Assembly: GCA_003489165.1 (NCBI GenBank)
Contig: DNJG01000007.1
Coordinates: forward strand, 1-54,793
From: Nitrospinota bacterium
Lineage (GTDB): Bacteria > Nitrospinota > Nitrospinia > UBA9942
DNA: 54,793 bases
Direction of reading: 5' to 3'
The notes beneath the pieces were generated by a model that worked only from the letters and a program-made list of their open reading frames with translations, did no database searches and was not told the DNA's origin. This document shows, piece after piece, positions 15,875-35,999 of the stretch; position 1 is the stretch's first letter, and the number at the start of each line of letters is the position of its first letter. A program made the position numbers and the translations under genes.

Positions 15875-16393
15875 TTAAAATCTATTCAGTATGTCCTCTA
15901 TAAGTTTTTTGTTCAATTCACCCTTAAATTTTTCCTTTATCCTCCCTTCACGGTCAATGAAAAATGTAACCGGCAGCCCAATCACTCCATAATCCATTGA
16001 TACCTTCAGATCAGAGTCTATAAGTATAGTAAATTCTACCCCTTTTTCTGATATAAATTTTTTGACCCTGTCATAACTTTCATTGTAATTTATACCTATA
16101 ACCTCAATACCCTCACCCTTTCTATTATTATAAACCTCTTGTAAGAGAGGCATCTCATTGACACAGGGCGGACACCATGTTGCCCAAAAATTGAGCATAA
16201 CCTTTTTACCTTTGTAATAATCAAGGTTTATAGCCTTTTTGCTTAAATCGGTCAAGGCAAAGTTAGGTGCATAGCTACCAATATTTACATTAGTGTTCTC
16301 ATTATCCCTTTTACATCCTGATATTATTATTGCCAAAAGAAAAATAATGAAGAAAGCAATTTGATTATGCCTGCCGAATTTATCTTTATTCAT
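15875..16393 (-). CDS. TlpA/ResA-family periplasmic thiol:disulfide oxidoreductase (lipoprotein)
   Basis: FWATWCPPCVNEMP thioredoxin motif. Signal peptide with lipobox IISGC. Confidence 0.85.
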   Translation of the reverse strand: MNKDKFGRHNQIAFFIIFLLAIIISGCKRDNENTNVNIGSYAPNFALTDLSKKAINLDYYKGKKVMLNFWATWCPPCVNEMPLLQEVYNNRKGEGIEVIGINYNESYDRVKKFISEKGVEFTILIDSDLKVSMDYGVIGLPVTFFIDREGRIKEKFKGELNKKLIEDILNRF

Positions 16394-19353
16394 CTATATC
16401 CTGCCTTTGAAATATTCTTTATCTTCTCTATCTCGGAATTTATTAAATTCCTCTCCTGTTCTGTAATTTTTAATCCAAGTCCTCTGCTGTAATAGTCCAT
16501 AGCCTTCATTAGGTCAATCTCATAATATGTATATATGCTCCCCAAATTCAGATAAGGACTAAAATATTTTCCATCAAGTGTTATAGCATATTCAAATTCA
16601 TTTACAGCCCTTTTTATATCTTTTTTAGACAGGAATAAAAGTCCTCTGAGATTATAAAGCTGTGGCGTAAACTCATTGTCTCTGTCTAACCCTATACATT
16701 CATTTATAAGCTCAAATCCTTTATCTATCTCTCCTGTAGAAAGAATCCTGTATATACTGTTAATGTTTAAATTTATAAGCTCATATCTTGCATCTGTATT
16801 TTCACTATTAATTTCAGCCGCTTTTCTAAAACTATATACTGCATCCTCAAGGCTGTTATCGTTTACACCAACCTGCCCTTTTAAAAAATAAGTGTAAGAA
16901 TTAAAATATTTTTCTATTTCTTCACCTTTGTTTGAGTCCAAATCTCGGACTAATCCTTTTACAGATTTCCGATATTTCAGCATATTCAGCAGATTCTTCC
17001 CCTTTATAGATGTCCCAACATGATGAATCCTCGGTGCTGTAAATTCTACATAGGGGTTATTATCAGTAACAATAGGAACTCCATCAATAAATTTATGTAA
17101 ATCTTCTTCATCCATCATAAATGTAGAGAGGAGTTGAAATGGATTGAATATTCCTATCTCTTTCAGACTTTCCTGTATCTTTTTATTATTAAGCCTTTCC
17201 CTGAAATTCTCAAAATCTATTGCCAATTTTTTATCAGAACCTATCATAATTGCATCCCATTTTGTAAACCACATTGTGGAATGCGGAAATACAGACACAA
17301 AAGTTGAAACCAGCATCTTAAAATCATCTTCTGAAAGATGATGAAGGGGTATCCAATGAGATACCATTCCGCCCTCTTTAAGACGGGATTTACAGAGCAT
17401 ATAATACTCCCTGCTGTAGAGATTCACAATACCTGCATTTGACGGCGGGGGGGGTTCTGATGTGATAAGGTCAAATTTTTTATCTGTTGTCAGCAGAAAA
17501 TTTCTCCCATCCTCAATAATCATTTTAAATCTGCTGTTATTAAGTATGTCCCTGTTTCCATCAGAGAAATATCTGCCGCCGTTGAATACCTCTCTTGATA
17601 TATCTACTGCATATATCTCACTGACATTGTGGTCACCGACAGCCCCTGCCGTTGAACCAGTTCCAAAACATATAATCAGTGCATCCTTTGGGTCAGGATG
17701 GAATAAGAGGGGGAGATGCGCCTGAAGCCTCTCAAGTTGTAATGCACCCCTGAATTCACCTGCAATAGGGTCTCCATTTATCCAGAGCCTCTTTACAGGT
17801 TTTCTAAAGGGGGTAAGGTCTGTCTCCTGAGATGAGACAAGGACAGTCCCTGCTATCCCTTCTTTATAATAAAGTATTTCATTCCCTTTATCTATCTTCC
17901 CGATGCTGATTAATTTTGGAATATCTCCCGTTCTTAATATAAAAATAATAATGATAACACTGATAGTAATAGATAATATGGAAATAAAATATCGGGCAAT
18001 GCTTCTTTTGCTTATATAAATCAGGATAATACCAAATAGAAGGGGAATAGCTCCTGTCCATATGATAGATTTCTGTATTCCTATGAGGGGAAGAAGTATA
18101 AAGCCTGCAGAAAAAGAACCTATTATTGCACCTATAGTATTAATCAGATATACCTTTCCTATACCTTTCCCGATATCTTTCATCTCAAATTTCAGGGTTT
18201 GAGCTACTGCAGGAAAACTTGCTCCCATTAATAGTGTAGGAATAATCATTATGAAAAATGCCATTAAAAAGGTTGCAAACATTCTCCCTTGCCAATGTCC
18301 GATACCAACAAATTGTGATGCCCATGAAATGAAGTTATTGAGCTGAGAGGCAATGAAATTGTGATTTGCAAACAGAAGGAGAGATAAAAATCCCATCAGA
18401 CCAATCAAAATTTGAAAGACTGCAAAAATGGTTACCAAGTTCTCACTTTTAAAAAATTTAGGTCTTAAATTCCGAAATCTAAAATCCGAAATCCAAAATC
18501 CAAATATAAGGCTCCCACCTGCTATACCGAGGAGAAATGTAAATAGGATTATTGAAAACGCATATATGGTATTATCCAGAATCAGTATAAGAACCCTTGT
18601 CCATAACACCTCATAGGAGAGTGCCGCCATTCCTGAGAAACCAAAGGCAAGAAGGATTAAGGTCGATAGTTGGGAGTTGGGAGTTGGGAGTTTTGAATCT
18701 TGAGTTTTTAGTTCTGACTTCTGACTTCTGACTTCTGACTTCTGACTTATTATATACGCCCCTCCCCCTGCAATTAAATTCAAGAGGGCAGCTGAATAAA
18801 GCGATTGTGTAACACCAATAACCTCTATCAGGTAAAAACCTGTAATAATACATCCTGCAACTGCCCCGAAGGTATTTAAGGAATATATAACTCCTGTATC
18901 AACCCCTATTTTGTTCTCACTCTTTATAAGAAATCTTGATATAACAGGAAGCGTCCCCCCCATCATAGTTGTTGGAAATATCAGGATTAAAGAAGATATT
19001 AGAAATCTTTCTGCAGAGAGAAGTAAAAAGCTTCCCCCTGTTAATACATGAAGTTTTACATACAGCCATTCTGTAAGTGAAAAAATATTTGGCAATAAGA
19101 TAGCGTATAAACCTATTAGAATCTCAAGAAGTGCATATACCTTCAGAGGATTCCCCCTCTTATCTATGAGTCTGCCAAAGATATATCCCCCTATACCAAG
19201 CCCTGCCATAAATACGGTAAGTACAGTGCTTATTGCAAATGAGGATACACCAAATACGAGTGAAAGGAGGCGGGTCCAGACGATTTCATAGATAAGCCCT
19301 GAGGCGCCTGATAGGAAAAATATGAGGAGGATTAAAGGTCTTGCATAGTTCAT
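16390..19353 (-). CDS. Fused polytopic membrane / spermidine-synthase-like (SAM-MTase fold) / TPR protein
   Basis: 987 aa. The N-terminus (FFLSGASGLIYEIVWTRLLS) is typical of fused MFS-like spermidine synthase proteins. A central aminopropyltransferase-like block (ICFGTGSTAG, DLITSEPPPP) is followed by C-terminal TPR-like repeats. Confidence 0.7.
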   Translation of the reverse strand: MNYARPLILLIFFLSGASGLIYEIVWTRLLSLVFGVSSFAISTVLTVFMAGLGIGGYIFGRLIDKRGNPLKVYALLEILIGLYAILLPNIFSLTEWLYVKLHVLTGGSFLLLSAERFLISSLILIFPTTMMGGTLPVISRFLIKSENKIGVDTGVIYSLNTFGAVAGCIITGFYLIEVIGVTQSLYSAALLNLIAGGGAYIISQKSEVRSQKSELKTQDSKLPTPNSQLSTLILLAFGFSGMAALSYEVLWTRVLILILDNTIYAFSIILFTFLLGIAGGSLIFGFWISDFRFRNLRPKFFKSENLVTIFAVFQILIGLMGFLSLLLFANHNFIASQLNNFISWASQFVGIGHWQGRMFATFLMAFFIMIIPTLLMGASFPAVAQTLKFEMKDIGKGIGKVYLINTIGAIIGSFSAGFILLPLIGIQKSIIWTGAIPLLFGIILIYISKRSIARYFISILSITISVIIIIFILRTGDIPKLISIGKIDKGNEILYYKEGIAGTVLVSSQETDLTPFRKPVKRLWINGDPIAGEFRGALQLERLQAHLPLLFHPDPKDALIICFGTGSTAGAVGDHNVSEIYAVDISREVFNGGRYFSDGNRDILNNSRFKMIIEDGRNFLLTTDKKFDLITSEPPPPSNAGIVNLYSREYYMLCKSRLKEGGMVSHWIPLHHLSEDDFKMLVSTFVSVFPHSTMWFTKWDAIMIGSDKKLAIDFENFRERLNNKKIQESLKEIGIFNPFQLLSTFMMDEEDLHKFIDGVPIVTDNNPYVEFTAPRIHHVGTSIKGKNLLNMLKYRKSVKGLVRDLDSNKGEEIEKYFNSYTYFLKGQVGVNDNSLEDAVYSFRKAAEINSENTDARYELINLNINSIYRILSTGEIDKGFELINECIGLDRDNEFTPQLYNLRGLLFLSKKDIKRAVNEFEYAITLDGKYFSPYLNLGSIYTYYEIDLMKAMDYYSRGLGLKITEQERNLINSEIEKIKNISKAGYR
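18668..18748. repeat. In-frame heptamer arrays (TTGGGAG x3 and CTTCTGA x5) inside the 987-aa gene
   Basis: AGTTGGGAGTTGGGAGTTGGGAG at 18668-18690 and TTCTGAC x5 at 18712-18748. Together they encode ...QKSEVRSQKSELKTQDSKLPTPNSQLST... Confidence 0.9.
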
Positions 19354-19357: not shown

Positions 19358-19425
19358 AGTTTCAGAATATCAAAGTGTCAAAGTGTCAAAGACTTTTAAC
19401 TCTGATACTCTGAAACTTTGACACT
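19358..19425. repeat. Inverted tandem-octamer hairpin (TCAAAGTG x2.5 ... CTTTGACAC)
   Basis: AGTTTCAGAATATCAAAGTGTCAAAGTGTCAAAG ... CTCTGAAACTTTGACACT, between the propeller gene and the 987-aa gene. Confidence 0.75.
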
Positions 19426-20551
19426 ATTTCTTTAATATCTCCTCCGGCGGGCTCACCTTAACTTTCAAATCTGACTTTTTTGATATGCTTCCGATTTTAG
19501 ACAAATTCAGCTTGCCTATCTTATTTCCTGACATCATTGTAAACCATATGTTATTTTTTAAATCTGCCGTTATTGCAAGCGGCTGACTATCCTTCATCGG
19601 TATATCGTATTCTTTAAAAATTTCTGAATCAGGGTCAAATCTTACAATCTTGTTTTCATATCTCAAGGCAAGCCAAATATTATTCTCTTTATCTATAGCC
19701 ATACGCTGCGCCCCCTTTTTCCCCGGAATTGGAAAGTCCTTGAATTCACCCGTGGCGGGATTAAGTCTTACCAGCTTTTTGTCCTTCAGCCTGCAAAACC
19801 ATACATTCCCTTTTGAATCAATTGCAGTGCCTATAGGCATACTCAATGGCTGTTTTAGTTCATACTCCTTGAATTTTCCATTTTCATGATTTATCATTCC
19901 AATTTTGTTTCCACCCTTTTGAACAAACCACATATTTCCTTTTGAATCACTGGCGAGACCTGATGACTGGCTCATGGGGGTAGGGATATCATATTCCTTA
20001 AACCTCTCCTTAATCCCCTCTTTTTGAGAAGAGGGTGGGGTAAACTTAGTTATTTTATTTCTGTTCCACTCTACAAACCATACATTGCCCTTTGAATCTG
20101 CCGATATAGAGGCAGGATTACTCTGTGGAACCCGAAGGTCAAACTCCTCAAACTCCAATGTCCGTGTATTAAACTTTCCAAGCTGATTGCCTTCCTGCTC
20201 CGTGAACCACAGGTTATTATCTTTATCTATTGTCATATCCGTAGATTCACTTTTAGTTGTAGGTATCTCAAACTCCTCAAAGATATTTTTTGAAGGGTCC
20301 AACTTTCCAATCTTATTTGCACTATATTCCAGGACCCATACGATACCAGAACGGTCTACAGCAATATCAGTCGGAGAACTTAAAGGGGTAAGAATGGGAA
20401 ATTCTTCAAAAGGGGTATCTTCGGAGGCAAAGGCAAGAAAAACAGAAGACAGAAGACAGAAGACAGAGAACAGAGAACAGAGAACAGAGGACAGAAGAAA
20501 AACTCTAACTTCTGACTTCTGACTTCTGACTTCTGACTTCTTATTTCTCAT
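19424..20551 (-). CDS. Secreted Vgb (streptogramin-lyase-like)/NHL-type beta-propeller protein
   Basis: Repeated blades of the form D..GN.WF.E...NKIGK......F.EY.IP. The likely start is the ATG at 20551, which overlaps the upstream stop (ATGA) and gives MRNKKSEVRSQKSEVR + hydrophobic core + AFA|SE. The tracked start at 20629 lies inside the upstream gene. Confidence 0.65.
   Translation of the reverse strand: MRNKKSEVRSQKSEVRVFLLSSVLCSLFSVFCLLSSVFLAFASEDTPFEEFPILTPLSSPTDIAVDRSGIVWVLEYSANKIGKLDPSKNIFEEFEIPTTKSESTDMTIDKDNNLWFTEQEGNQLGKFNTRTLEFEEFDLRVPQSNPASISADSKGNVWFVEWNRNKITKFTPPSSQKEGIKERFKEYDIPTPMSQSSGLASDSKGNMWFVQKGGNKIGMINHENGKFKEYELKQPLSMPIGTAIDSKGNVWFCRLKDKKLVRLNPATGEFKDFPIPGKKGAQRMAIDKENNIWLALRYENKIVRFDPDSEIFKEYDIPMKDSQPLAITADLKNNIWFTMMSGNKIGKLNLSKIGSISKKSDLKVKVSPPEEILKK
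20443..20540. repeat. Heptamer arrays (CAGAAGA x3, CAGAGAA x3, ... then CTTCTGA x4-5) that encode the signal peptide of the 19424-20551 gene
   Basis: Read directly: CAGAAGACAGAAGACAGAAGACAGAGAACAGAGAACAGAGAACAGAGGACAGAAGA ... CTTCTGACTTCTGACTTCTGACTTCTGACTTC. Confidence 0.9.
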
Positions 20552-21855
20552 ACTGCCTTTTTCTTTACAAAAACCAAAGCTGATATGACAACAACCACTA
20601 TGAGCAGTATGCCTGATATATAAACCCATAAAGGCACTTTACCACCAACTGCCGATTTCTGCATCTCTTCTGCATACCTTTTATCCCCTTCCGAGTGTTC
20701 ATGTTTGTGTGCCTCATGAATTTCAGGAACAGAAGAAATAACTAATTGTCCAATCTTATTTGCCCCTCTCTCATTCTCTGTAAACCATATATCCCCTTTT
20801 GAATCTATAGCCATATTCATAGGCTGGGAATTTATTGTTGGTATGTCAAAATCGTGGAATGATGCAGAATGCGGCTCAAAGTAGCCTATTTTATTCATCA
20901 TATCATCTATATACCAAAGCCTCCCTGTTTTATCAAATATGATGCTCTGCGGAACGCTATTATAACCGGGGAGTACTGCCTCACTCATCATACCCGTTGA
21001 CGGGACAAGCATTGTAACCTTGTGGCTGTGAAGCTGTGGAAACCATATATTTTTTGAGTTGTCAATCAATATCTTACCCGGTCGGCTTAGAGGGGTAACT
21101 ATCGGAAATACCTTATAGGTTTTGGTCTTTGGGTTAAACCTTCCTATCTCATTCATTGCCACATCGCTAATCCAGATATTGTCTTCTTCATCTACTGCAA
21201 TGCCTGCGGGATGACTACTGGATTTAAGGTCATATTCAACAACCTTCTTTATCTTAAAGTCAAGCTTTCCGATTTTACCGCTATTCCATTCAATAAACCA
21301 CACATTACCCTCTGAATCCAGTGCTAAGTCATTGGGACTGCTCTGTGGTGTCGGTATATCATATTCTACAAATTTTTCTGTGGATGGTTCAAAACTGCCG
21401 ATTTTATTGCCAATCTGCTCCACAAACCATAATTTGTCATTTTTATCTATAATAATGGCGCCCGGACTGCCAAGAGATACATCATAAACCTCTTTTGGAG
21501 GGGTTTTTTCTGTAGGTGAATATTTCCAGTTACTCTTTGGAATTGATGCCGTAGATGGTATCTGATATTCTTTGAAGGTCTGATTTACAGGATCAAATTT
21601 AACTATCTTATTTGTAACCTGTGCTGTAAACCAAATATTATCTTTTGAGTCAACCACTATCCCGAATGGATGGCTGTAAGGGGTTGGGATTACATATTCA
21701 TTAATTACAGGTCCTTCGCCATTTCTTGCAGAAGGAGCAATTTTGGTATCCCCATGCATTGAATGCTGTCCCTGTTCGTCTCCCGTAGATATATTAACAA
21801 GGAGATATAAAAATAGAAATGCAAACAATAAGAATATTTTTTTAAATGGATTCAT
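20548..21855 (-). CDS. Vgb/NHL-type beta-propeller protein with N-terminal signal peptide, His-rich linker and C-terminal membrane anchor
   Basis: 435 aa with the same blade repeat as its neighbour. It has an HSMHGD motif after the signal peptide, then EIHEAHKHEHSEGD followed by a TM helix (LWVYISGILLIVVVVISALVFV) and KKKAV. Confidence 0.65.
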   Translation of the reverse strand: MNPFKKIFLLFAFLFLYLLVNISTGDEQGQHSMHGDTKIAPSARNGEGPVINEYVIPTPYSHPFGIVVDSKDNIWFTAQVTNKIVKFDPVNQTFKEYQIPSTASIPKSNWKYSPTEKTPPKEVYDVSLGSPGAIIIDKNDKLWFVEQIGNKIGSFEPSTEKFVEYDIPTPQSSPNDLALDSEGNVWFIEWNSGKIGKLDFKIKKVVEYDLKSSSHPAGIAVDEEDNIWISDVAMNEIGRFNPKTKTYKVFPIVTPLSRPGKILIDNSKNIWFPQLHSHKVTMLVPSTGMMSEAVLPGYNSVPQSIIFDKTGRLWYIDDMMNKIGYFEPHSASFHDFDIPTINSQPMNMAIDSKGDIWFTENERGANKIGQLVISSVPEIHEAHKHEHSEGDKRYAEEMQKSAVGGKVPLWVYISGILLIVVVVISALVFVKKKAV

Positions 21856-21942: not shown

Positions 21943-22635
21943 TTACCATGTAAATGTCGGTTCATACATATGACGCATCTGCCAGTTGGCGTCTTTATAT
22001 GTTTCTGCTCCGGCAAGGTCATAAGTCTTTTCCCCTGTTGTTTCATCAATACTTACCATCTTCCCTGCCTTATACTTGGCACTTTTTATCTGTCTTGCCC
22101 TGTCAACTTGATAATATTCTGCCACATTAACAGGCGGTGTATACATCCTGTGTCCCATTGATGAGTTATGACAGGCATCACATCCAAGAATCTTTGCCTG
22201 ATAACCGCTCTTAAAAGTAATGCCTGCTAAAAATACTGCTATGAGCAGGACAGGGGTATTGAATACTAATTTACTAAAAAAGCCCATTGGCTCTTTATTG
22301 CCGGGATTAACCTCTGCCTTTCGTTTAAATGGTATCCTAATAAACGGCAGAAAGATTAGAAAGAACAAAAAAATGAATGGGACAATTGCACTATAAGCAA
22401 GCAAATGTTTAGTTTCACCCGTAAAATACCAGAATGGCTGCCAGAGAAGCAAAAAATACCATTCAGGTCCTGGTATATATTGTCCATCATCAGGACCAGG
22501 GATAATAGCAGGTGCATCGTCAGGAACCTGAAATTTTATTGCAAGAATAACCACTACAATTAATATTATAATCGCCAGCGAGCCTGCCTTTAATACATGA
22601 TGGGGCCACCAGGTTTTTTGTTTGGTTTCTTTCAT
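21943..22635 (-). CDS. Cytochrome b C-terminal (subunit IV-like) domain fused to a mono-heme c domain
   Basis: 230 aa with the Qo-site PEWY motif (GPEWYFLLLWQPF), TM helices and one CxxCH (CDACH). SD GGAGGGAGA upstream. Confidence 0.75.
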   Translation of the reverse strand: MKETKQKTWWPHHVLKAGSLAIIILIVVVILAIKFQVPDDAPAIIPGPDDGQYIPGPEWYFLLLWQPFWYFTGETKHLLAYSAIVPFIFLFFLIFLPFIRIPFKRKAEVNPGNKEPMGFFSKLVFNTPVLLIAVFLAGITFKSGYQAKILGCDACHNSSMGHRMYTPPVNVAEYYQVDRARQIKSAKYKAGKMVSIDETTGEKTYDLAGAETYKDANWQMRHMYEPTFTW

Positions 22636-22802: not shown

Positions 22803-23426
22803 TTATAATGGCTCTGCTACACCTAACTTCCTTACCATCTTAAAATGAAAAATCAAGATAAACAATACAATGGCGGGGAGCACCCATACATGAATGACAA
22901 AACTCTTGCCTATTGTAAATGCTGAGATAAAGGGTATAATTAAACGCTCACCAATGATTGGTATTGTGCCAAACCAGTCTGCCCATACAACCAACTCCCA
23001 GTAACTCCTCCAATCCCATGGAAGTGTAATACCTGTCCCCATAAAGAGAAACATAAGCAAGAAGAGTAATATTCCCGACCACCAGTTCAATTCTCTCGGA
23101 CTTTTATATGCCCGTCTTGTAATAACATTAACTGTATGGATGAACAGGAATGCAACAATGAGGGTTGCACTCCATCTGTGCATGTTCCTCATTAATCCTC
23201 CATAGGGAATATTATTACAAAGATATTTTATGCTATCCTGTGCCTTTTCTGCAATTGGAACATAAAAAAACATCATAAATACGCCTGAAAAGACTTGAAG
23301 AACTATTAGAAAAAATGCAAGTCCCCCGAAACAAAACCAGAAATTTGCATGGGAAGGTACTGGATAATTTAACTGTTTAACGATTCGTTCTTTGATACCT
23401 GTTCTTTCATTTAACCATTTAATCAT
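22803..23426 (-). CDS. Cytochrome b6-type cytochrome b (N-terminal four-helix domain)
   Basis: 207 aa. Bis-His pairs are H-x13-H (HRWSATLIVAFLFIH) and H-x14-H (HVWVLPAIVLFILIFH). NFWFCFGG matches the b6/Firmicute motif whose Cys carries heme ci. SD GAGGAGAA upstream. Confidence 0.85.
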   Translation of the reverse strand: MIKWLNERTGIKERIVKQLNYPVPSHANFWFCFGGLAFFLIVLQVFSGVFMMFFYVPIAEKAQDSIKYLCNNIPYGGLMRNMHRWSATLIVAFLFIHTVNVITRRAYKSPRELNWWSGILLFLLMFLFMGTGITLPWDWRSYWELVVWADWFGTIPIIGERLIIPFISAFTIGKSFVIHVWVLPAIVLFILIFHFKMVRKLGVAEPL

Positions 23427-23635: not shown

Positions 23636-24094
23636 TTATCCCTCTTTTTTAAAACTCTCCTCATCCTTTGTCTCAGCCATAAAGTCTATCTTCCACCTTT
23701 TTTCCTTCTCATCAAGAATCAGATGAGTCTGACTCTTTGATACAAACGGACTGCCTAAAATAGAGGGTATAGTATATTCAACCGTTACCTTTGCAATTAT
23801 ATTCCCTTTAGCATCTCTTTTATTTAATATTGAACTATCAAGGATTTTTATCTTTGTGTCGGGGTCAAACTGCTCTGTCCATCTTCTAAAAGTATCCTCT
23901 TCAATCTCCTCATATTTTGTGCTTATCAGTTTACGAGCCTCTGCGGCGGCAGCCTTGCCTTTCTGGGACAATAAAAAATAAAATCTCTTAACAACCTCTT
24001 CAGGGGGTTCTTTTGGCAAATCAGCCTGAGACCAACTGCAACCTATTAAATTAGATATTAAGACTGCCAATATTATTGAAATGACTTTATTCAT
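23636..24094 (-). CDS. Lipoprotein of unknown function
   Basis: 152 aa with a signal peptide and lipobox (LISNLIGC). I recognise no catalytic motif. Confidence 0.6.
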   Translation of the reverse strand: MNKVISIILAVLISNLIGCSWSQADLPKEPPEEVVKRFYFLLSQKGKAAAAEARKLISTKYEEIEEDTFRRWTEQFDPDTKIKILDSSILNKRDAKGNIIAKVTVEYTIPSILGSPFVSKSQTHLILDEKEKRWKIDFMAETKDEESFKKEG

Positions 24095-24269
24095 AAGAAC
24101 CGTTTATTATTTAATAAAGAACATCTGATATTACATCTGTCATATATAATATTTATGATTAAAATCATATAACAGATATTTTAGTCTGAAATTTATTTAA
24201 TTCTCCGCTAAAATGTAAGTGTTATAATATTATTATCTATACAAAAATGTCAATAATAATCTTAAAACA

Positions 24270-24304
24270 ATAAAGAAAGGGGTTAGGATTTAACTCCTAA
24301 CCCC
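24270..24304 (-). terminator. Rho-independent terminator after the NosZ-like gene
   Basis: On the minus strand, GGGGTTAGGAG-TTAAA-TCCTAACCCC is followed by TTTCTTTATT. Confidence 0.7.
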
Positions 24305-24344
24305 TTCCATTCAAACTGCCCTGAAAAAACTTAATCCTCGAAAT

Positions 24345-26144
24345 TTATATCGCAGGCTCATTACCCTCTTTAAGTGTATTCAACAGCCTATTGCCGCCTG
24401 TGATAAATTCCCTCTCTTCTGGATCTCCAAGCTGATATTCAAGTTTTGACATCTCATCATAATCCCCGACGGAGAGTGATGCTGTTCCTCCCGGTGGGTC
24501 AACAAAGAATGTCCCTCTCATTTCAAGGTGGAGTGGTCCGCAGAACTGCTGGCAGTAGAATTCAAATTCACCTGCCTTATCAGCAATGAATTCTCCTACG
24601 CCTGACATACCCCTTACTCCGTCTATCCTTGTCTTCTGGCCATAATATCCTGCTGGCAAGAATCCCATAGTAACATCAGGATTCTTTGTAAGACCTGCTG
24701 CCTTATCAATGTTTGTAAGGATTATTCTTACCTTTGCACCCTTTTTAACATGGATAAACCTTGGGATATACCCATAGCTGAATGCCTTTATCCTTACTAC
24801 AGTGACATCCCCTTCCTGGGTTACACCTGGCTTTCCATCATCCCTCGGGATAAAATATCTCTTTGCACCAGCAAGATGAAGCGGCTCTAATGACGGCCTC
24901 TTTGTCAGGCTTCTGCCCGGAGTATTTTTATCATCAAAGCTGACCTTTACATCCCCCAGCTCATAACCCTTGGCAAACAAGTCACCACCCGTACCTGTAT
25001 TCCATCTCTGGATAGTGGTAGAGAATATCTGCCTGCCTTCATGCGGCTCTCCATTTATTGGAACAATTTTTACACTCTTTCCATAGGTTGGAGAGAGTTC
25101 ATCAATATCCTGCTCCTCAAAATTAATCGCAAATACTATACCTGTCGGATTGAAAAGACCTGTGGAGAACTTATTCTGAGATACATAGTAATGGTCATCA
25201 GGTGAAATTGAATTGTGTCCCACCCTGTAGTGGATTGGGAACTCATCAACCATCTGCATTCTGCCAAGGTCAACCTTACAGGTTGAGTCAGAAACAAAGC
25301 TGCTTATATAGTTATACTTTCCATAGGAATCAGGCTGATTGTGAAGAGGGCCTGCACCAACTGGAATAACCCTATGAACCTTTAACTGCCTCACATCAAT
25401 AACAGACTGAGTTGCAGAAAGCTTATCACAAACTACAGCCCATCTGTTCGTCGGCACAAAATTGGTTCCATGCGGGTTCTTACCGACCGGGATTTCCTTT
25501 ATAAATTTAAAAGGGTCCTGGCTGAAGACCATAACCGCACTGTGATAATAGTTACCTGCAAATACATATTTTCCATCCTTGCTTGCATCAGGATAGTCAG
25601 GTGCGCTTGGTGCCGGTGGCACATCAATTACTGTTGTTGCACCATCCGCAACCCTCATCTTTGCCATCTTGCCTGAAAGCTCGCCTGTTAGAAATATATA
25701 TTTACCATTCGGACTCATTGCTGCTGAGTGGTGAATACCAAATGGTTTTGGATTTGCAAGAATCCTCTCTGCAAAACCAGTTTGTAAATTCAACTCAATA
25801 ACTGCATCTGCACCCTTGTCTGATACCCAGAGAAACTTTCCATCAGGTGTTCCGTTGTTGTTACCGGCATTTGAACCGCTGAATGGGAAGTTGTGCATAT
25901 CAACGCCCATTTTAATATATCTGTAAACCTTCATACTTGGGATACCAATAACACCGATATTCCCGTCATGTCCGCCAGCCTCATAGAGCATTGCATAATC
26001 TCTCAGAGGCGAGTCGCTGTCCTGAGGTGCTATTACCTGCCAATCCCTCTGGTCAGCAGGCGTAAGCTCCGTCTTACGGGCTTCTGCTATCCCTGCTAAA
26101 AATAATACTGCTAAAATTAAGGCTAAAAAGCCCTTTTTATTCAT
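24345..26144 (-). CDS. Nitrous-oxide-reductase-like protein: Sec signal, beta-propeller, C-terminal CuA-type cupredoxin; divergent metal ligands
   Basis: GGHDGNIGVIGIPSM resembles the NosZ N-terminus. His-containing blades are FGIHHS, NPHGTNF, GPLHNQ, VGHNS and EPHEG. C-terminal YCQQFCGPLHLEM matches the CuA CxxxCxxxHxxM motif. Strong SD GGAGGTGA upstream. Confidence 0.7.
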   Translation of the reverse strand: MNKKGFLALILAVLFLAGIAEARKTELTPADQRDWQVIAPQDSDSPLRDYAMLYEAGGHDGNIGVIGIPSMKVYRYIKMGVDMHNFPFSGSNAGNNNGTPDGKFLWVSDKGADAVIELNLQTGFAERILANPKPFGIHHSAAMSPNGKYIFLTGELSGKMAKMRVADGATTVIDVPPAPSAPDYPDASKDGKYVFAGNYYHSAVMVFSQDPFKFIKEIPVGKNPHGTNFVPTNRWAVVCDKLSATQSVIDVRQLKVHRVIPVGAGPLHNQPDSYGKYNYISSFVSDSTCKVDLGRMQMVDEFPIHYRVGHNSISPDDHYYVSQNKFSTGLFNPTGIVFAINFEEQDIDELSPTYGKSVKIVPINGEPHEGRQIFSTTIQRWNTGTGGDLFAKGYELGDVKVSFDDKNTPGRSLTKRPSLEPLHLAGAKRYFIPRDDGKPGVTQEGDVTVVRIKAFSYGYIPRFIHVKKGAKVRIILTNIDKAAGLTKNPDVTMGFLPAGYYGQKTRIDGVRGMSGVGEFIADKAGEFEFYCQQFCGPLHLEMRGTFFVDPPGGTASLSVGDYDEMSKLEYQLGDPEEREFITGGNRLLNTLKEGNEPAI

Positions 26145-26172: not shown

Positions 26173-26592
26173 TCATGGCTCATGCCCAAAATATACCCCT
26201 GCCTTCATATCTGACTCTAACCTCTTAATCATGTAATCATCTGGATTCAGGATGCTTATCTTCCTTGCCAGCCATTTACCATCTTTGGGCCATCCATGAA
26301 CCTCTGCAAGAGTCCCCTCTTTCAACTCAGCAAATTTCTTGAATGCACCTCTCTCTGATGGATCCTTTGTTGTCTTTACCTGAATCTGACACTCATCCTG
26401 CATATTGAGCTTCCATGTCTTTGGGGTCTTCTCAAATTTTGTTGTAAGCTCAATAACCCTTGCACCCCTGTCAATCTTTGTGATTGTCCCTATATATGAT
26501 GTATCATCAGGAAGAGACCCATCATAAGAGAAGGCTATGCCGCTGGAAAGAACAAACAATGAAATAACTATAATTGATAGATATTTTTTCAA
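26173..26592 (-). CDS. Small secreted protein of unknown function
   Basis: Signal peptide (KKYLSIIVISLFVLSSGIAFS). The likely start is the TTG at 26592, 8 nt after SD GGAGG; the tracked GTG at 26601 abuts the SD. Confidence 0.55.
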   Translation of the reverse strand: MKKYLSIIVISLFVLSSGIAFSYDGSLPDDTSYIGTITKIDRGARVIELTTKFEKTPKTWKLNMQDECQIQVKTTKDPSERGAFKKFAELKEGTLAEVHGWPKDGKWLARKISILNPDDYMIKRLESDMKAGVYFGHEP

Positions 26593-26863
26593 ATTTTTCA
26601 CCTCCTTTCATTTTTAAAATTAGTGATTAACGGATGTATAACTAAGCAAGATATATGCCACTGTCAAAAAAAAGTTAAAACCATATAACTATTTGATATT
26701 TATAGCTATTCATTCAGGCATCTCAAACTAAAATAGTAGAAATATCACATTAATGTTACACATTAAAATAAAGATATTTGAAACCTATTGAATTTATAGA
26801 ATAATGTTATTCTCAAATAAATACAGATTTGTCACTTTAATGTTACAATCCTATTAAACATCT

Positions 26864-27604
26864 TTATTTTAGCGGTTTTAAGGGATGAAATATGTCCGAA
26901 ATAGTTACATCAATATCAAAGGCATCCTTCAACAATTCGCTTGCTATTATCTCATGCGGCTCGCCAGATGCTATCAACATGCCATCTTTAACTATATATA
27001 CACAATCAAACTGAAATGCCATATTTATATCATGTAAAGCCATAACAACAGATATATTCTTAATATCTCTAAGGTTCCTGAGCAATCTTATCAACTCTAT
27101 CTGATACTTAATATCAAGGTTTGCGAGAGGTTCATCAAGAAGTAAAATCCCTGCCCCCTGAAGCAGTGTCATAGCTATAAAGACCCTCCTCCTCTCGCCG
27201 CCGCTTAACTCCGTTATGAAAGAATCTGTTTTTTCGCCAAGGCCAACCATTTTTATAGCCTCTTCAGGTGATAGCTGAGGGAGGATGTCATAAGGATAAA
27301 GTCCCATACTGACAAGTTCCCTCACCCTGAATGGGACATTAATATCAAGCATCTGCGGAAGATAACTTAGGAGCTTTGCCCTGTCTTTTCCCTTATACTG
27401 ATGGAGCGGTTTATTCCACAAGTTTATCTCTCCCATTTGAGGCGCAAGAATCCCCGCCGATAGTTTTAGTAATGTGGACTTCCCTGAGCCGTTTGCCCCT
27501 AACAGGCCAATGAACTCCCCGCCATTAACGGATATTGAGAGGTCTTTTATAAATCCTTTTCTGTTGTATGAAAATGAAATTTTCTTTAAATCAAGTATTC
27601 CCAC
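26864..27604 (-). CDS. btuD: ABC transporter ATP-binding protein, FecE/BtuD family
   Basis: Walker A GANGSGKST, signature LSGGERRR, Walker B ILLLDEP. GTG start lies directly after the permease stop. Confidence 0.85.
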   Translation of the reverse strand: MGILDLKKISFSYNRKGFIKDLSISVNGGEFIGLLGANGSGKSTLLKLSAGILAPQMGEINLWNKPLHQYKGKDRAKLLSYLPQMLDINVPFRVRELVSMGLYPYDILPQLSPEEAIKMVGLGEKTDSFITELSGGERRRVFIAMTLLQGAGILLLDEPLANLDIKYQIELIRLLRNLRDIKNISVVMALHDINMAFQFDCVYIVKDGMLIASGEPHEIIASELLKDAFDIDVTISDIFHPLKPLK

Positions 27605-27605
27605 C

Positions 27606-28565
27606 CTACACCCCCATTATCTCCCTTTTCCTTAAAAGATAAAGGAAGTATGGTGCGCCAATTATAGCAGTAATAATCCCTGCTGGAATTTCTGTCGGCG
27701 ATACAATTGTCCTGCCGATTGTATCTGCCATACACAAAAAAGTCCCTCCAACCAAGGCAGACAGGGGCAATAGAAATCTGCAATCAGAACCAACGAAAAA
27801 CCTGATTATGTGAGGTATCAGAAGCCCTATAAAACCTACAACACCGCCTAATGATACGGATGATGCAGTCATAAGCCCTACTGAAATAAACAAAATCAAT
27901 CTTTCTTTAAATGGAGAAAAACCAAGGCTGTAGGCAATCTCGTCTCCCAGTATCAGTGCATTTAAACCCTTTACCCGCCAGATGGAAAGCAGAAAACCTG
28001 CAAAGATAAAAATTAATCCATATGGAATCAGCGACCAATCTGCCATTGATAAATCTCCAAATATCCAAAGCATCGCCCTTTTTAATCCCTCATCCGCAGA
28101 GATGCTCATAAGAAGCATAAGGATTGAAGAAAAGAGAAAACCTATTCCAATACCTGCAAGTAGTAATCTCTCAGGGAGAAGCCCTCCCCTTTTATATCCC
28201 ATAATACCAACTGCAATGCCGGTAGAAATTGCACCAATAAAGGCAAGCAATGGAATTGTAAAGAGTCCAAATATAATTTTTCCAAATATAAGACCTGCGG
28301 CAGCCGTCAGTGTTGCACCGCTTGATATGCCAAGTATATAGGGGTCTGCAAGTGGATTTCTAAGAAGCCCTTGAAGTATAGCCCCTGATACACCAAGGGC
28401 TGACCCCATAAGTATAGAAACGATAACACGCGGAAGCCTTATTGAGAAAATGATTTGACTGCCTGTGTCATCCAGATTGAATGGGTTAATAAACTTTGGC
28501 CATATAAAGACAGAAACAAACAATATGCAGATAGAGACAATAATCAATAATATAATCTTTCTCAT
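27606..28565 (-). CDS. btuC: FecCD/BtuC-family ABC permease
   Basis: 319 aa polytopic protein with typical FecCD motifs (RLPRV, NPLADPYILGISSGA, GAPYFLYLL). Confidence 0.88.
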   Translation of the reverse strand: MRKIILLIIVSICILFVSVFIWPKFINPFNLDDTGSQIIFSIRLPRVIVSILMGSALGVSGAILQGLLRNPLADPYILGISSGATLTAAAGLIFGKIIFGLFTIPLLAFIGAISTGIAVGIMGYKRGGLLPERLLLAGIGIGFLFSSILMLLMSISADEGLKRAMLWIFGDLSMADWSLIPYGLIFIFAGFLLSIWRVKGLNALILGDEIAYSLGFSPFKERLILFISVGLMTASSVSLGGVVGFIGLLIPHIIRFFVGSDCRFLLPLSALVGGTFLCMADTIGRTIVSPTEIPAGIITAIIGAPYFLYLLRKREIMGV

Positions 28566-28573
28566 TCTTTTTA

Positions 28574-29527
28574 TTACTTCTGGTTTCTTGCTTCTGGCTT
28601 CTGACCTCTATTTAAATACCCTTTCAACTCTTCAATCCCCTCTACTATCCTCGGTCCAAGCCTGTAAAGTGCATCACCCGTATAATAAACCCTCCCATTC
28701 TTTACAGCCTTAAGCATGCCAAGTTTTTCTAAAAGCCCTTTTGAGAGTTCCTTTGTATCAGCACCCATACTCTTTCCTATTAAAATGGCATTAGGTGAAC
28801 GATGTATAACCTCCTCAATTGAATATTTAGGATACCCTCCCACGACATCAGATGCAATATTCTCCCAGCCAAGCAATTGTAGGGCATCATCAATTGTTGT
28901 GCCATGTCCTGCTACAAGCAGAGGCTCGGGCCAGACAATAAAGAGAGCCTTTCCTTTAACTTCTGGCTTCTGACTTCCAGCTTCTGACTTCTGAAGTTTG
29001 TTTTCTATCTCTTCTGCAAGTTTATTCGCCCTTTCTCCTGCACCGAGGGTAATACCTAACTCCCTTATTCCTTCTGACAGTTCAGAAAGCCGCCTTGCCC
29101 TGAATACATAGGTCTGTATTCCAAGTTGTTTCAACCTCTCTTCAAACCCCTTTGGATTTCCATCTGTAGTCATTACAACAATATCTGGCTTCATAGAGAC
29201 AACGGCCTCAAGGGATGGATTAGACATACCTCCGATTTTAGGCTTCTCTTTTGCTCGAGGCGGGTAATCGCAGAAATTGGTTACCGCTAAAATCTTATCT
29301 TCAAGCTCAATGGCATAGAGAATCTCAGTGATGTTAGGTGCAAGTGATACAATTCTCTCAATGGGTGAGGAGAAAGCTGTGCTTGATAAAAATATAAATA
29401 TAATCAACCACAGAGAACCCAAAGAAAGAAAATAAAAAAATAAATTATATATATTGTCTAAAGAAAACCTGCTTCCTATTTGATTTAATATCTTTATTTT
29501 TCTCTGTGTCCTCTGTGGTAAATACAT
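28574..29527 (-). CDS. btuF: Periplasmic cobalamin/siderophore-binding protein (BtuF-like); start codon uncertain
   Basis: RIVSLAPNITEILYAIELEDKILAVTNFCDYP is typical of class III SBPs. The 5' ~120 nt run through repeat copy G. The C-terminal tail and an internal linker are encoded by CTTCTGR heptamers. Confidence 0.75.
   Translation of the reverse strand: MYLPQRTQRKIKILNQIGSRFSLDNIYNLFFYFLSLGSLWLIIFIFLSSTAFSSPIERIVSLAPNITEILYAIELEDKILAVTNFCDYPPRAKEKPKIGGMSNPSLEAVVSMKPDIVVMTTDGNPKGFEERLKQLGIQTYVFRARRLSELSEGIRELGITLGAGERANKLAEEIENKLQKSEAGSQKPEVKGKALFIVWPEPLLVAGHGTTIDDALQLLGWENIASDVVGGYPKYSIEEVIHRSPNAILIGKSMGADTKELSKGLLEKLGMLKAVKNGRVYYTGDALYRLGPRIVEGIEELKGYLNRGQKPEARNQK
29402..29524. repeat. 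CCACAGAG-type palindromic repeat, copy G, lying within the annotated 5' end of btuF
   Basis: AATCAACCACAGAGAACCC ... TTTCTCTGTGTCCTCTGTGGTAAAT. Confidence 0.8.
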
Positions 29528-29530
29528 AAA

Positions 29531-31519
29531 TTAAAATTGCGCCGATAACCCCGCAAGAAAATTAATCTCAGTGGAAGGATAATATGCCTTTTGAGCCGGA
29601 AAGCCGCCTATTACTCCATATTCTGAATATTCTTTATTAGTTATATTATTGATGTCCAAGAATGCTTCTGTCTTTTTCCATCGGTATTTAAGCTTTGTAT
29701 TGAGCACAATATACTGTTCCTGAGAGCTGAAGCTGTTTGAAAAGTCGCTTATAAAGGGCCGTTCTCCGACATATATCCCACCCACATTAAGAGTTAAACC
29801 TCTTGCCGGAGTAAAAGAAGCATCTGCTGCTGCTTTATGCCTCGGAACATCGGGTATATCCTTTCCTGCAAAGCTGCCGTCTTTTGTCTTCGCTTCCATA
29901 TAGGTATAGCTTCCTCTAATAACCATCCAGTCAAATTCATTACTGCAAGAGATTTCCATTCCCTCCCGCCTTGTTAAACCATCCATATTCATATTGGCAT
30001 AACTCAGAGCGTTATAGAAAATCTCATTCTTTGTGTCAACCCTGAAAAAACTCACATTACCATATCGCTTACTGCTAAAAGGAATCTTTACTCCAAGCTC
30101 AAAATCATCAGAGTTTTGATTGAGAAGACCTGTGTTTACAGTATTTGTAAAGAAGCTGTACAACTCATCCAATACAGGGTATCTAAAGCTTCTGGTAAAG
30201 CTGATGTATGGAAAATATTTCCCGTTGAGATTATAATTAACTCCTATAGTATAAGATGATTCACTCCATGTCTTTTTTGCGGGAGTGCCGGGCTCAAAGG
30301 AATAATCTGCACTGTCGCTTCGATAGCCCCCTGATACTCTGAGACCTTGTAAAAGCTCAAGCTCATCAAACATGTAATAACCATAGTTGGTTTTACCGAG
30401 CTTATACTTTCCCAAAGAACTTATTCCAAAATATAATGAATCATTTGTGATATCCTCGCCTGCACTATAATAATCAAGACCAATGGTCAGCTTATTATTT
30501 AAATTTGCAACATCATTATTTAAAAAAAGTTGTGGCAGAAGCGCAAATGTTCCGATTGTTGTATCCCCTTTAAAATTTCCACCCGCAAATGACGAGTATG
30601 ATAAAGAGTCTCTTTTCCGAAAAGATGTATCTACTTTAAAGGAGCTGTCATTCTTAAAATATATCTCCGGCACCATGTGAATATAGTAATCTTTGACATC
30701 AGCAAAGTCATCTGGATTTAGCGATGATGTCCTTGATACCCCTGATGCAAGGTCACTTTCTTTAAGTGCCCCCGGAAGACCGGTTTTATCTTCATGATAC
30801 CCGCCGCTTATATTAACGGCAAGGCTATTAAAATGATACTCCATATTTATTCCGCTGTCCTTTGCATTTGTATAGCTGTTTCTCCTATAGCCATTGGAAT
30901 TAAGAAGACTCCCTGAGATGAATAGAGAGGCATTATCTGAACTGTTGCTGATATATGCTTCGCCTCTGGATGTCCCAAAACTTCCTCCATCTATCTCTCC
31001 ACCTGATTTCAATTCCTCTCCCTTTTTTGTAATTATATTGATGACCCCTCCGGCGGCATTATCACCATAGAGCACAGATCCCCTTCCTCCCCTGATGACT
31101 TCAATCCTCTTTACTCTGTCAAGAGGAATCTGTGTCCAATCTGTCCCGCTCAAATCCACATGGTTAACTTTTCTGCCGTCTATCAGTACCAGTGTATTCA
31201 GTCCGCCCGTTTCTCCAAATCCTCGTATATCTACATTATAACTTCTTTTGTTTCCAGCTATATCACTTACCTTTATATCAGCCTGCGTTTTTAAAAGGTC
31301 GGGTATAAACTGTGCTGTGCTGTTTTCAATATCTTCTTCGGTTATAACGGATACATTCAATGGGACAAAATTATACTCCTCTTTGTATCGTGTGGCTGTA
31401 ACAACAATTTCAGGTAAGGTTTCTACTGATTCTTGAGCAAAGGCAATGGTTGAAAGGCATGTAATTGATGAAGTGAAACCAAACAAAATAAAGCAGATAA
31501 AAAGAATGAACTCTCTCAT
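29531..31519 (-). CDS. btuB: TonB-dependent outer-membrane receptor (cobalamin receptor by riboswitch context)
   Basis: 662 aa with a signal peptide, TonB box EIVVTATR, a plug domain and a C-terminal aromatic residue (LSAQF). SD GAGGGAGGG upstream. Confidence 0.88.
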   Translation of the reverse strand: MREFILFICFILFGFTSSITCLSTIAFAQESVETLPEIVVTATRYKEEYNFVPLNVSVITEEDIENSTAQFIPDLLKTQADIKVSDIAGNKRSYNVDIRGFGETGGLNTLVLIDGRKVNHVDLSGTDWTQIPLDRVKRIEVIRGGRGSVLYGDNAAGGVINIITKKGEELKSGGEIDGGSFGTSRGEAYISNSSDNASLFISGSLLNSNGYRRNSYTNAKDSGINMEYHFNSLAVNISGGYHEDKTGLPGALKESDLASGVSRTSSLNPDDFADVKDYYIHMVPEIYFKNDSSFKVDTSFRKRDSLSYSSFAGGNFKGDTTIGTFALLPQLFLNNDVANLNNKLTIGLDYYSAGEDITNDSLYFGISSLGKYKLGKTNYGYYMFDELELLQGLRVSGGYRSDSADYSFEPGTPAKKTWSESSYTIGVNYNLNGKYFPYISFTRSFRYPVLDELYSFFTNTVNTGLLNQNSDDFELGVKIPFSSKRYGNVSFFRVDTKNEIFYNALSYANMNMDGLTRREGMEISCSNEFDWMVIRGSYTYMEAKTKDGSFAGKDIPDVPRHKAAADASFTPARGLTLNVGGIYVGERPFISDFSNSFSSQEQYIVLNTKLKYRWKKTEAFLDINNITNKEYSEYGVIGGFPAQKAYYPSTEINFLAGLSAQF

Positions 31520-31624
31520 TTTTCCCTCCCTCGAGAAAATTTAGTTTGTTTTGGCAGAGTCTCTTGTTCGTGTTTTTAACCCATAACTCCGAACTCCAAA
31601 CTCTGAACTTGTTTTGGCTTGGAT

Positions 31625-31775
31625 AGGTCTTCCGGCTTAAGGGCTACCTACTTACCTGCCTTCCCATCATGGCATTACCCATGACAGTGGCATGTAGGTT
31701 TTCGTTCCCTTTTACGGCTGCGGGGCAGCGGAGGATTTTCACCTCTCTTCCCTGGCATCCAGCCACCAATAATTG
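31625..31775 (-). promoter_or_regulatory. Cobalamin (B12) riboswitch
   Basis: Minus strand reads ...GGTGGCTGGATGCCAGGGAAGAGAGGTGAAAATCCTCCGCTGCCCCGCAGCCGTAAAAGGGAACG...ATGCCACTGTCATGGG...GGGAAGGCAGG. This covers the conserved GGTGAAAATCC core and the B12 box GCCACTG. Confidence 0.85.
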
Positions 31776-31919
31776 TCTTTACTTCTTACTGTTTAAGTTA
31801 TCACCTCCTTCCACTAACACCGATTCACTGTTTTTATATTTAAACAGCTTTTTAATTTTTTTGTCAAGTTTTTTATCTCTTTTCCATTATGGTTTTTAAT
31901 GCCTGACCCCATAAATTGA

Positions 31920-32108
31920 CATTTTTCCGATGTTCAAAAGAGACTTCCCTATTTCATAGAACATGTGTATAATCAAAAGCGTTTGCATTCATCCCTTGGT
32001 TACAGACCACCGGATGAGTTTGAGAGAATGCACTTAAAAACCCTGTCTGATTGCTCTAACTTAAAATGTCCGGTCTCAGGGGTGCAGTCCCTCTTGGATT
32101 TCTTTTAA
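31920..32108 (+). pseudogene. Remnant of the C-terminus of an IS3-family transposase (integrase-core tail)
   Basis: Translates to ...YFIEHVYNQKRLHSSLGYRPPDEFERMHLK...*, the canonical end of IS3 OrfB. No upstream catalytic domain or inverted repeats are present. Confidence 0.7.
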
Positions 32109-32157
32109 CAAGATTCTTCACTGAAGTTCAGAATGACAGAGGCAAAAGGAAATCGTA

Positions 32158-32841: not shown

Positions 32842-32860
32842 TATTAATGGAGGTGGGGAT

Positions 32861-33109: not shown

Positions 33110-33181
33110 ATTAGCTACTTATTAACGCGGACTTAAAAGAAAATTTTTTAGTCAGTGAAAGTCTGTGGCTGATTATTTATT

Positions 33182-34693: not shown

Positions 34694-34694
34694 T

Positions 34695-35003: not shown

Positions 35004-35020
35004 TAAATGGGAGGTAAAAA

Positions 35021-35995: not shown

Positions 35996-35999
35996 ATTT

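Follow-up and report, generated by a model that had tools for sequence, protein, structure and literature searches.

A probable clade III, lactonase-type nitrous-oxide reductase with a methionine at its CuA-like site in a groundwater lineage of Nitrospinota

A stretch of 54,793 nucleotides from a Nitrospinota bacterium (GenBank assembly GCA_003489165.1, contig DNJG01000007.1), referred to below as the window, carries a gene designated L-nosZ (24345..26144; coordinates joined by two dots refer to the minus strand throughout). Based on its open reading frame (ORF), its match to the NCBIfam model NF052460, Foldseek searches and its ratio of non-synonymous to synonymous substitution rates (dN/dS), this gene is placed among the lactonase-type NosZ genes, and more precisely in the Asn85 (Nitrospinota) subclade of those with a Met-type CuA site. 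The gene probably encodes a periplasmic, Sec-exported and copper-dependent nitrous oxide (N2O) reductase of the lactonase-type clade III, or L-NosZ, which would be fed with electrons from quinol. To our knowledge, no enzyme other than N2O reductase acts as a biological sink for N2O, and a third NosZ clade broadens the range of organisms that may consume this gas.

The family itself is already known. A Sec-type, NosZ-like clade in which a lactonase-type propeller is joined to a cupredoxin domain was described in 2024, with Nitrospinota DRJW01 named and with expression in dysoxic groundwater, while its function was left open (PMC11033732). As cited in PMC13477213, PMC13502197 and PMC13454781, He et al. 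(Nature 2025) established this family as clade III L-NosZ. Nitrospinota homologues are treated as clade III nosZ in the later literature (PMC13477213, PMC13502197), and their loci have been reported to have cytochrome and transporter genes as neighbours and to lack the canonical nos accessory genes (PMC13477213). Furthermore, PMC13592168 mentions ‘clade III-specific motifs’ of He et al., so that the L-type ligand pattern discussed below has probably been described already. The window protein is thus a further member of a known family, in a subclade that falls under current NCBI thresholds, and the preliminary description of this gene, which had been made from the sequence alone and had proposed a relative of NosZ whose active site is remodelled and which could form a distinct clade of N2O reductase, is a correct and independent rediscovery.

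The L-nosZ ORF encodes 599 residues and is preceded, at a distance of 7 nt, by a GGAGGTG Shine-Dalgarno sequence (ribosome-binding site). An identical protein is encoded on 18 metagenomic contigs, and comparison with orthologues of 81-95% identity yields dN/dS values of 0.09-0.14, from which it follows that L-nosZ is a real gene under purifying selection. Its N-terminus, MNKKGFLALILAVLFLAGIAEA/RK, contains no twin arginine and reads as a Sec-type signal peptide (residues 1-22, ending ...AEA/RK; 26079..26144), represented by an N-terminal helix with a low predicted local distance difference test score (pLDDT) in an AlphaFold2 model. The mature part consists of a seven-bladed beta-propeller (residues 50-376; 25017..25997), a C-terminal cupredoxin domain with a CuA-like site (residues 428-549; 24498..24863) and an acidic tail of 50 residues (550-599; 24348..24497). 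The propeller and its candidate ligands for the catalytic CuZ site are delimited by the strand pattern of the model, by invariance within the family and by alignment to the enzyme of Pseudomonas stutzeri, whereas the cupredoxin domain is delimited by Pfam Cupredoxin_1, by alignments with NosZ and CoxB entries of the PDB, by hhalign and by its ligand columns. The tail, modelled as low-confidence helices, contains 10 Asp and Glu against 4 Lys and Arg residues and a conserved GDYDE motif; according to the alignments it is absent from Desulfitobacterium-type and canonical NosZ, and is ~20 residues longer in the Nitrospinota subclade. The signal peptide and the acidic tail had been recognized in the preliminary description, as had the shortness of the propeller, which spans ~327 residues as compared to ~440 in canonical NosZ. 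The motifs listed there are likewise all found at the places given: AGGHDGNIGVIGIPSM at residues 56-71, GVDMHNFPFS (containing H84 and N85), FGIHHS (135-140), NPHGTNF (223-229), GPLHNQ (265-270), VGHNS (308-312), EPHEG (366-370), DVTMGF (containing M493) and YCQQFCGPLHLEM at residues 530-542.

The fold is that of a NosZ. The AlphaFold2 model (pLDDT 75.8, predicted template modelling score 0.78) exhibits seven four-stranded blades followed by the cupredoxin domain, and all of the top 50 Foldseek matches in the PDB are nitrous-oxide reductases (E ~1e-29, 20% identity). The template modelling score of ~0.5 and the root-mean-square deviation of ~16-18 Å of these matches may mean that the two domains are positioned differently with respect to each other. 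Profile-profile alignment by hhalign against eight clade I and II representatives, which served as the canonical set, returned a probability of 100% and an E value of 2e-62. Pfam matches above the gathering score are confined to residues 90-251, namely Lactonase (PF10282; 42.5 bits, cutoff 21.7) and YNCE (PF21783; 42.9 bits, cutoff 27.1), while matches to nos_propeller and Cupredoxin_1 fall under threshold. Taken together, Pfam, AlphaFold2 and Foldseek reveal the combination that defines L-NosZ, i.e., a compact, lactonase-like seven-bladed propeller with a C-terminal cupredoxin domain, the same architecture as that of the NosZ-like clade of PMC11033732.

Among the NCBIfam models the best match of the window protein is NF052460 (‘L-NosZ, clade III lactonase-type nitrous-oxide reductase’), which covers it in full (E 5e-175, 582.5 bits). 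With 154.7 bits on TIGR04246 (clade II) and 109 bits on TIGR04244 (clade I), it remains far under the 625-bit cutoff of both canonical hidden Markov models (HMMs). NosZ of Desulfitobacterium nosdiversum (UniProt P0DXY7) shares 40% identity with it along 566 residues (E 1e-121). This enzyme from strain Sab5 (WP_425804335.1; UniRef100_P0DXY7, ‘Nitrous-oxide reductase, Desulfitobacterium nosdiversum’) falls within the 90% identity cluster P0123, for which the highest NF052460 score was observed (914 bits); He et al. (Nature 2025) probably worked on P0DXY7, which is also likely to underlie the definition of NF052460. In a neighbour-joining (distance) tree of 130 sequences with 40 bootstraps, the L-type sequences, the window protein included, are separated from canonical clades I and II with 100% support. 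Support is also 100% for the Met-type core and for the Asn85 subclade (48 sequences including the window protein), and 97.5% for the latter together with P0048.

The candidate ligands of the CuZ site were mapped on the nitrous-oxide reductase (N2OR) of P. stutzeri, numbered after PMC8179356, and MAFFT, run with the eight canonical representatives, and hhalign gave the same result. H84 and N85 of the window protein correspond to H129 and H130, the first and second His of the DxHH motif; H138 corresponds to the blade-2 His H178, and H139 to the Gly which follows it; and H225, H268, H310 and H368 correspond to H326, H382, H433 and H494, respectively. A local HMMER alignment to NosZ of the PDB had placed the canonical GDCHHP in an insertion and paired GVDLH with GWGLT; this blade-1 register was rejected in favour of that of MAFFT and hhalign because it breaks the match of the invariant D82 and H84 to the canonical Asp and His, and misfits the predicted A-B hairpin of blade 1. 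H59, in GGHDG, was also considered as a ligand and dismissed, as this position varies across the family.

The ligand pattern was then surveyed in 190 full-length L-type sequences. All those with a complete His set carry D82, H84, Glu or Asn but never His at position 85, H138, H139, H225, H268, H310 and H368. Accordingly, a residue other than His at position 85 and a His at position 139 co-occur in 187 of 187 CuZ-competent L-type sequences, whereas the opposite holds for the canonical representatives, in which blade 1 has HH and blade 2 has HG (8/8). The window protein exhibits the full L-type signature (DxH[E/N]; HH; NPH; GPLH; GH; EPH), and its pattern, D H N H H H H H H, is that of P0123 and P0336 apart from Asn in place of Glu at position 85. 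The preliminary description had reported that one CuZ His was replaced by Asn, and N85 does indeed occupy the position of the second DxHH His; what it had overlooked is H139, and as this residue is invariant in the family, the number of candidate CuZ His remains seven. The complete covariation of the two positions suggests that blade 2 has taken over the His pair of blade 1, by which seven imidazoles would be kept around the central channel.

The predicted CuA-like site comprises M493, C531, the backbone carbonyl of residue 533, C535, H539 and M542, of which M493, C531, Q533, C535, H539 and M542 correspond to H583, C618, W620, C622, H626 and M629 of the P. stutzeri enzyme. The CxxxCxxxHxxM motif that had been noted at the C-terminus is thus intact, while the first ligand of the reference set (His...Cys, Cys, His, Met) is replaced by Met, again as the preliminary description had it. 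Its remark that Gln in place of the CxWFC Trp is unusual did not hold: Trp occurs in only four of the eight canonical representatives, the other four having Asn, Glu or Tyr, and Q533 is therefore no anomaly. An invariant insertion of six residues, inside KAAGLTKNP, immediately precedes DVTMGF. In N2OR of clade I, H583 flips on and off CuA (PMC8179356, PMC11573801). All eight canonical representatives retain both DxHH His and both CuA His, two of which N85 and M493 replace in the window protein. Position 493 is Met in 172 of the 190 sampled L-type sequences and His in 15, these being 13 clusters around P0123, one Chloroflexi protein and P0128; across about 170 Met-type sequences, none of the candidate ligands varies. 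Since Met493 is shared by 172/190 sequences, it marks a branch and does not exclude the window protein from the lineage, and the ligand changes are fixed traits of the lineage rather than quirks of one protein. The checks proposed in the preliminary description, a profile alignment with a phylogeny and a structural comparison, uphold N85 and M493, place the protein outside clades I and II and confirm a fold related to that of NosZ.

Three relatives depart from this pattern. P0125 (505 residues) and P0129 (477 residues) are L-type propeller-cupredoxin proteins in which the canonical CuA motif is complete, its first His included, but which are ‘CuZ-less’, with three and all seven of the CuZ His missing, respectively. 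P0121 (1139 residues) has an L-NosZ-like N-terminal half with decayed ligands (HH to NN, EPH to DPN, CuA cysteines lost), to which a C-terminal region of ~600 residues is fused, and looks like a pseudo-enzyme fusion.

In the mechanism that we propose, the compact seven-bladed propeller would hold a CuZ-type copper-sulfide cluster bound by seven His, namely the six canonical ones (H84, H138, H225, H268, H310 and H368) and H139, the seventh having been relocated as DxHH of blade 1 changed to DxHN and IHG of blade 2 to IHH. The cupredoxin domain would hold a binuclear, CuA-type electron-entry site of Cys2-His-Met2 composition, completed by a backbone carbonyl. Quinol would be oxidized by a cytochrome b6-like protein together with a subunit-IV-like haem c (PEW) protein, both encoded next to L-nosZ, from where electrons would pass via haem c to CuA and on to CuZ, at which N2O would be reduced to N2.

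A scan of GTDB species representatives identified 126 stretches that encode an L-NosZ relative. The Asn85 type resides mainly in metagenome-assembled genomes (MAGs) labelled Nitrospinota, the closest of which are mostly from groundwater and include NC_groundwater_1752 (95% identity) and Rifle RIFCSP MAGs (90%), so that the window very likely stems from a bacterium of this kind; the homologue of Nitrospinota DRJW01 (locus L025) is 73% identical. Hosts of the Glu85 type comprise Gallionella, Nitrosomonadales, Zetaproteobacteria, Magnetococcales, Desulfobacterota and Rhodospirillaceae (Alphaproteobacteria). Glu85 Met-type L-nosZ genes (loci L049-L080) are strikingly common in Fe(II)-oxidizers (Gallionella/Gallionellaceae and Mariprofundaceae/Zetaproteobacteria) and in Magnetococcales.

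The gene neighbourhood was compared by tblastn over 29 loci of the N type (Asn85) and 59 of the E type (Glu85). Five genes downstream of L-nosZ, encoding a lipoprotein, a cytochrome b6, a PEW-haem c protein and two NHL propellers, are syntenic with it in Nitrospinota, Deltaproteobacteria and Alphaproteobacteria at 26-50% identity, and the cytochrome b6 and PEW/CxxCH genes are also syntenic with L-nosZ in Desulfobacterota. The lipoprotein (152 residues, LIGC lipobox; 23636..24094) has homologues of 29-44% identity directly adjoining the 3' side of L-nosZ in the first three groups, and was found at 27/29 N-type and 26/59 E-type loci; it displays no conserved metal-binding residues and no credible Pfam match. 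Next to it lies a gene for a cytochrome b6-type, di-haem membrane protein (207 residues; 22803..23426; Pfam Cytochrome_B 2e-39; full-length matches to cytochrome b6 structures, E 5e-39), which is syntenic with L-nosZ in loci L004, L006, L007 and L088. The 230-residue membrane protein that follows (21943..22635) was recognized by motifs and synteny: it contains a PEW motif of the subunit-IV/Qo-like kind and a C-terminal CxxCH haem c site, the P.PEW and GC..CHN motifs being kept across 41 orthologues of both subclades, and is 39-48% identical to the products of syntenic genes. As it has no match in Pfam or among PDB sequences, its assignment as a subunit-IV-like haem c protein rests on its motifs and position. 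Two beta-propeller proteins of the NHL/Vgb-lyase type complete the series: the first (435 residues; 20548..21855; Vgb_lyase 1e-51) is syntenic in all examined clade III branches except the Desulfitobacterium type, and the second (19424..20551), 375 residues long as called in locus L001, was assigned from Pfam (Vgb_lyase 6e-63) and synteny.

Two further genes characterize the Nitrospinota type. A secreted protein of 142 residues (26173..26601), encoded 28 nt upstream of L-nosZ and traced by tblastn, is present at 29/29 N-type loci as compared to 1/59 of the E type and is thus specific to the former; it has no conserved Cys, His or Met and no credible Pfam match. Beyond the propeller genes, a spermine-synthase-like/TPR protein of 987 residues (16390..19353), identified through Pfam, occurs at 24/29 N-type and 0/59 E-type loci. 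Locus L004 encodes two such proteins (~980 residues; 6444-9200 and 16283-19213), the second copy lying on the opposite side of the cluster. A consensus scan located a strong, GC-rich terminator-like hairpin (14 bp with 7 G-C pairs and a T-tail; 24275..24308) 37 nt past the L-nosZ stop codon, and a promoter-like TTGACA-18-TATTAT sequence with 11/12 consensus matches (24224..24253) lies ahead of the lipoprotein gene, although promoter-like sites are no more numerous in this region than expected from shuffled sequence. L-nosZ and the gene for the 142-residue protein may be transcribed as one unit, independently of the cytochrome genes.

The remaining genes of the window are housekeeping genes. 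Directly upstream of the L-nosZ cluster (26864-37406) are genes for a TonB-dependent receptor and for the BtuF-like binding protein, FecCD permease and ATPase of an ATP-binding cassette (ABC) system, and, divergent from these, tetrapyrrole genes (two TP_methylase, HEM4 and ALAD); they probably serve the uptake and synthesis of cobalamin or haem rather than the delivery of copper or sulfur to NosZ. An assimilatory sulfate-reduction cluster (7903-14218, plus strand) comprises cysD, a cysN/cysC fusion, a gene for a sulfite-reductase-like protein, cysH and a sulfate permease gene. In the deltaproteobacterial L-nosZ cluster L006, a fusion of a NosD-like beta-helix with a c-type cytochrome domain is encoded between the cytochrome b and PEW-haem c genes (7946-9274), and has no counterpart in the window.

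Several observations weigh against the assignment of the window protein as a clade III N2O reductase. The relocation of a His matters because in the H130A variant of P. stutzeri N2OR, which has lost the second DxHH His, the CuZ site is empty and the enzyme inactive (PMC8179356), so that much depends on the proposed relocation; that a CuZ site can apparently form when the His pair lies in blade 2 instead of blade 1 is a testable bioinorganic point. P0DXY7, probably the reference enzyme, keeps the CuA His, unlike the Met-type branch, and for this branch or its Nitrospinota subclade no biochemical evidence was found, the papers that cite He et al. (2025) being silent on details of the copper sites. 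The score of 582.5 bits lies under the curated equivalog cutoff of NF052460 (700 bits), as do those of the other Nitrospinota-type proteins (602-653 bits), so that all scored members of the Asn85 subclade range from 582 to 653 bits, as compared to 720-800 for the Glu85 Met-type and 914 for the Desulfitobacterium type. This threshold serves annotation and centres on the Desulfitobacterium type, and the window protein is therefore placed in the lineage phylogenetically and not as an NCBI ‘equivalog’. Furthermore, a search of the whole 54.8-kb window revealed no nosD, nosF, nosY or nosL, and a NosY-like ABC2 permease is encoded within 10 kb at 0/29 N-type as compared to 16/59 Glu85-type loci, which bears on how the putative sulfide-bridged cluster would be assembled; the cytochrome neighbours and the lack of nosDFYL agree with the context reported for clade III nosZ, in which cytochrome and transporter genes occur but the canonical nosRDFYL set does not (PMC13477213). 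Finally, the window contains no Rieske gene.

Some of these points would also fit a copper oxidoreductase akin to NosZ which has shifted towards another substrate or role, for example the reduction of another small oxidant, with a retuned CuA site and subclade-specific partners. The exchange of the CuA His for Met is not seen in P0DXY7, the N-type subclade scores under the NCBIfam cutoff, has accessory genes of its own (the 142-residue protein at 29/29 and the spermine-synthase-like/TPR protein at 24/29 loci) and has no NosFY-like ABC transporter nearby, and the function of the NosZ-like lactonase clade was left open in PMC11033732. We nevertheless regard such a change of role as unlikely, given that the candidate CuZ ligands are all identical to those of the Desulfitobacterium enzyme, that the cytochrome b module is common to both types, that Nitrospinota homologues are counted as clade III nosZ (PMC13477213, PMC13502197) and that the gene context points to no alternative substrate. 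Far less credible still is an ordinary lactonase/YncE-family propeller without a redox function, even though the Pfam Lactonase and YNCE matches exceed their gathering scores and NCBI names the homologues ‘beta-propeller fold lactonase family protein’. These matches span only about three blades and reflect similarity at the level of the fold; all of the best structural matches are NosZ, L-nosZ is linked to cytochrome genes, and the cupredoxin/CuA domain with its intact CxxxCxxxHxxM motif and the invariant ring of His at the blade starts led us to reject a lactonase function. It is just as hard to view the protein as a decaying or non-catalytic relic: degenerate relatives which have lost ligands, such as P0121, P0125 and P0129, do occur in the superfamily, but here all candidate ligands are intact and invariant, dN/dS is ~0.1, the identical protein recurs on 18 contigs, and a strong ribosome-binding site precedes an intact ORF. 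Both readings, as a lactonase and as a pseudo-enzyme, can effectively be discarded.

If the window protein is a clade III N2O reductase, as we believe to be likely, it still need not be a mere copy of the Desulfitobacterium enzyme. We tentatively propose, while considering it rather doubtful, that the Met-type branch (~90% of the sampled L-type sequences) possesses a natural Cys2-His-Met2 CuA site, in which Met stands in for the flipping His proposed to gate electron entry, a Rieske-less quinol dehydrogenase composed of cytochrome b6 and subunit-IV-haem c, and a maturation route without linked NosDFY; it might thereby represent a mechanistically distinct N2O reductase or else, where the Nitrospinota subclade is concerned, might act on another substrate. 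That most clade III sequences carry Met in place of the CuA His, unlike the probable reference enzyme, is itself open to bioinorganic testing, and the split between a small His-type group, probably including that enzyme, and a large Met-type group, including the window protein, may be under-appreciated. Standard annotation misses the window protein, as homologues are named lactonase and the L-NosZ equivalog model stays below its cutoff; should Met-type proteins be active N2O reductases, the models and HMM cutoffs used in nitrogen-cycle metagenomics would need to be widened to cover them. The window offers a complete and well-conserved gene module for the Nitrospinota-type enzyme of a groundwater lineage.

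Compared with P0DXY7, the window protein shares the compact propeller and cupredoxin, the CuZ signature (DxH-E/N, HH, NPH, GPLH, GH, EPH), the six-residue insertion ahead of the first CuA ligand, the CxxxCGPLHLEM motif, Sec-type export and a cytochrome b gene immediately 3' of its own. P0DXY7 differs in that it retains the canonical CuA His (PAPMHGF as opposed to DVTMGF), is a lipoprotein, and lacks both the acidic tail and the 22-residue linker insertion of the window protein. The neighbours also differ, being genes for YtkA/FixH-like, MacB-type ABC, BNR propeller and NapC-type cytochrome proteins rather than for the lipoprotein, PEW-haem c and NHL propellers of the window. In the Desulfitobacterium-type locus L088, a sigma-54 two-component pair is encoded 5' of L-nosZ, while cytochrome b, a 191-residue protein, a YtkA/FixH-like protein, three MacB-type ABC sets, a BNR propeller, cytochrome c and a NapC/NirT-type cytochrome are encoded 3' of it; cytochrome b apart, these accessory genes are not those of the window. 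The short cytochrome b6 followed by a PEW(Y) and CxxCH protein resembles the arrangement of the Bacillus-type cytochrome bc complex (QcrB, cytochrome b6, and QcrC, a subunit IV-cytochrome c fusion), from which the window cluster differs by the lack of a Rieske gene and of a Pfam or PDB sequence match for the 230-residue protein.

The clade I enzyme (P. stutzeri N2OR, PDB 3SBP, TIGR04244) has the same fold (Foldseek E ~1e-28) and a ligand framework that maps one to one save for two positions, and differs in its twin-arginine (Tat) export, the presence of H130 and H583, a Ca2+-binding loop and larger inter-blade insertions. Clade II NosZ (TIGR04246) resembles the window protein in its propeller and cupredoxin, Sec export, six of the seven CuZ His positions and a CuA CxxxCxxxHxxM motif with a variable residue between the cysteines, yet is only ~27% identical to it, with DxHH intact, HG in blade 2, His as first CuA ligand and a propeller ~110 residues longer; it is usually accompanied by nosB/D/F/Y/L. 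A further comparison is with the Glu85 Met-type L-NosZ proteins (e.g., P0054, P0070 and P0100), which are 52-56% identical to the window protein. They differ from it by Glu85, a shorter tail and the lack of the 22-residue linker insertion, some having an 18-residue insertion past GPLH instead, and c-type cytochrome genes lie near 55 of their 59 loci and NosFY-like ABC transporter genes near 16. Common to both are Met493, the seven His and the GDYDE tail motif, and many Glu85 Met-type loci share the module of lipoprotein, cytochrome b, PEW-haem c and NHL propeller genes found in the window.

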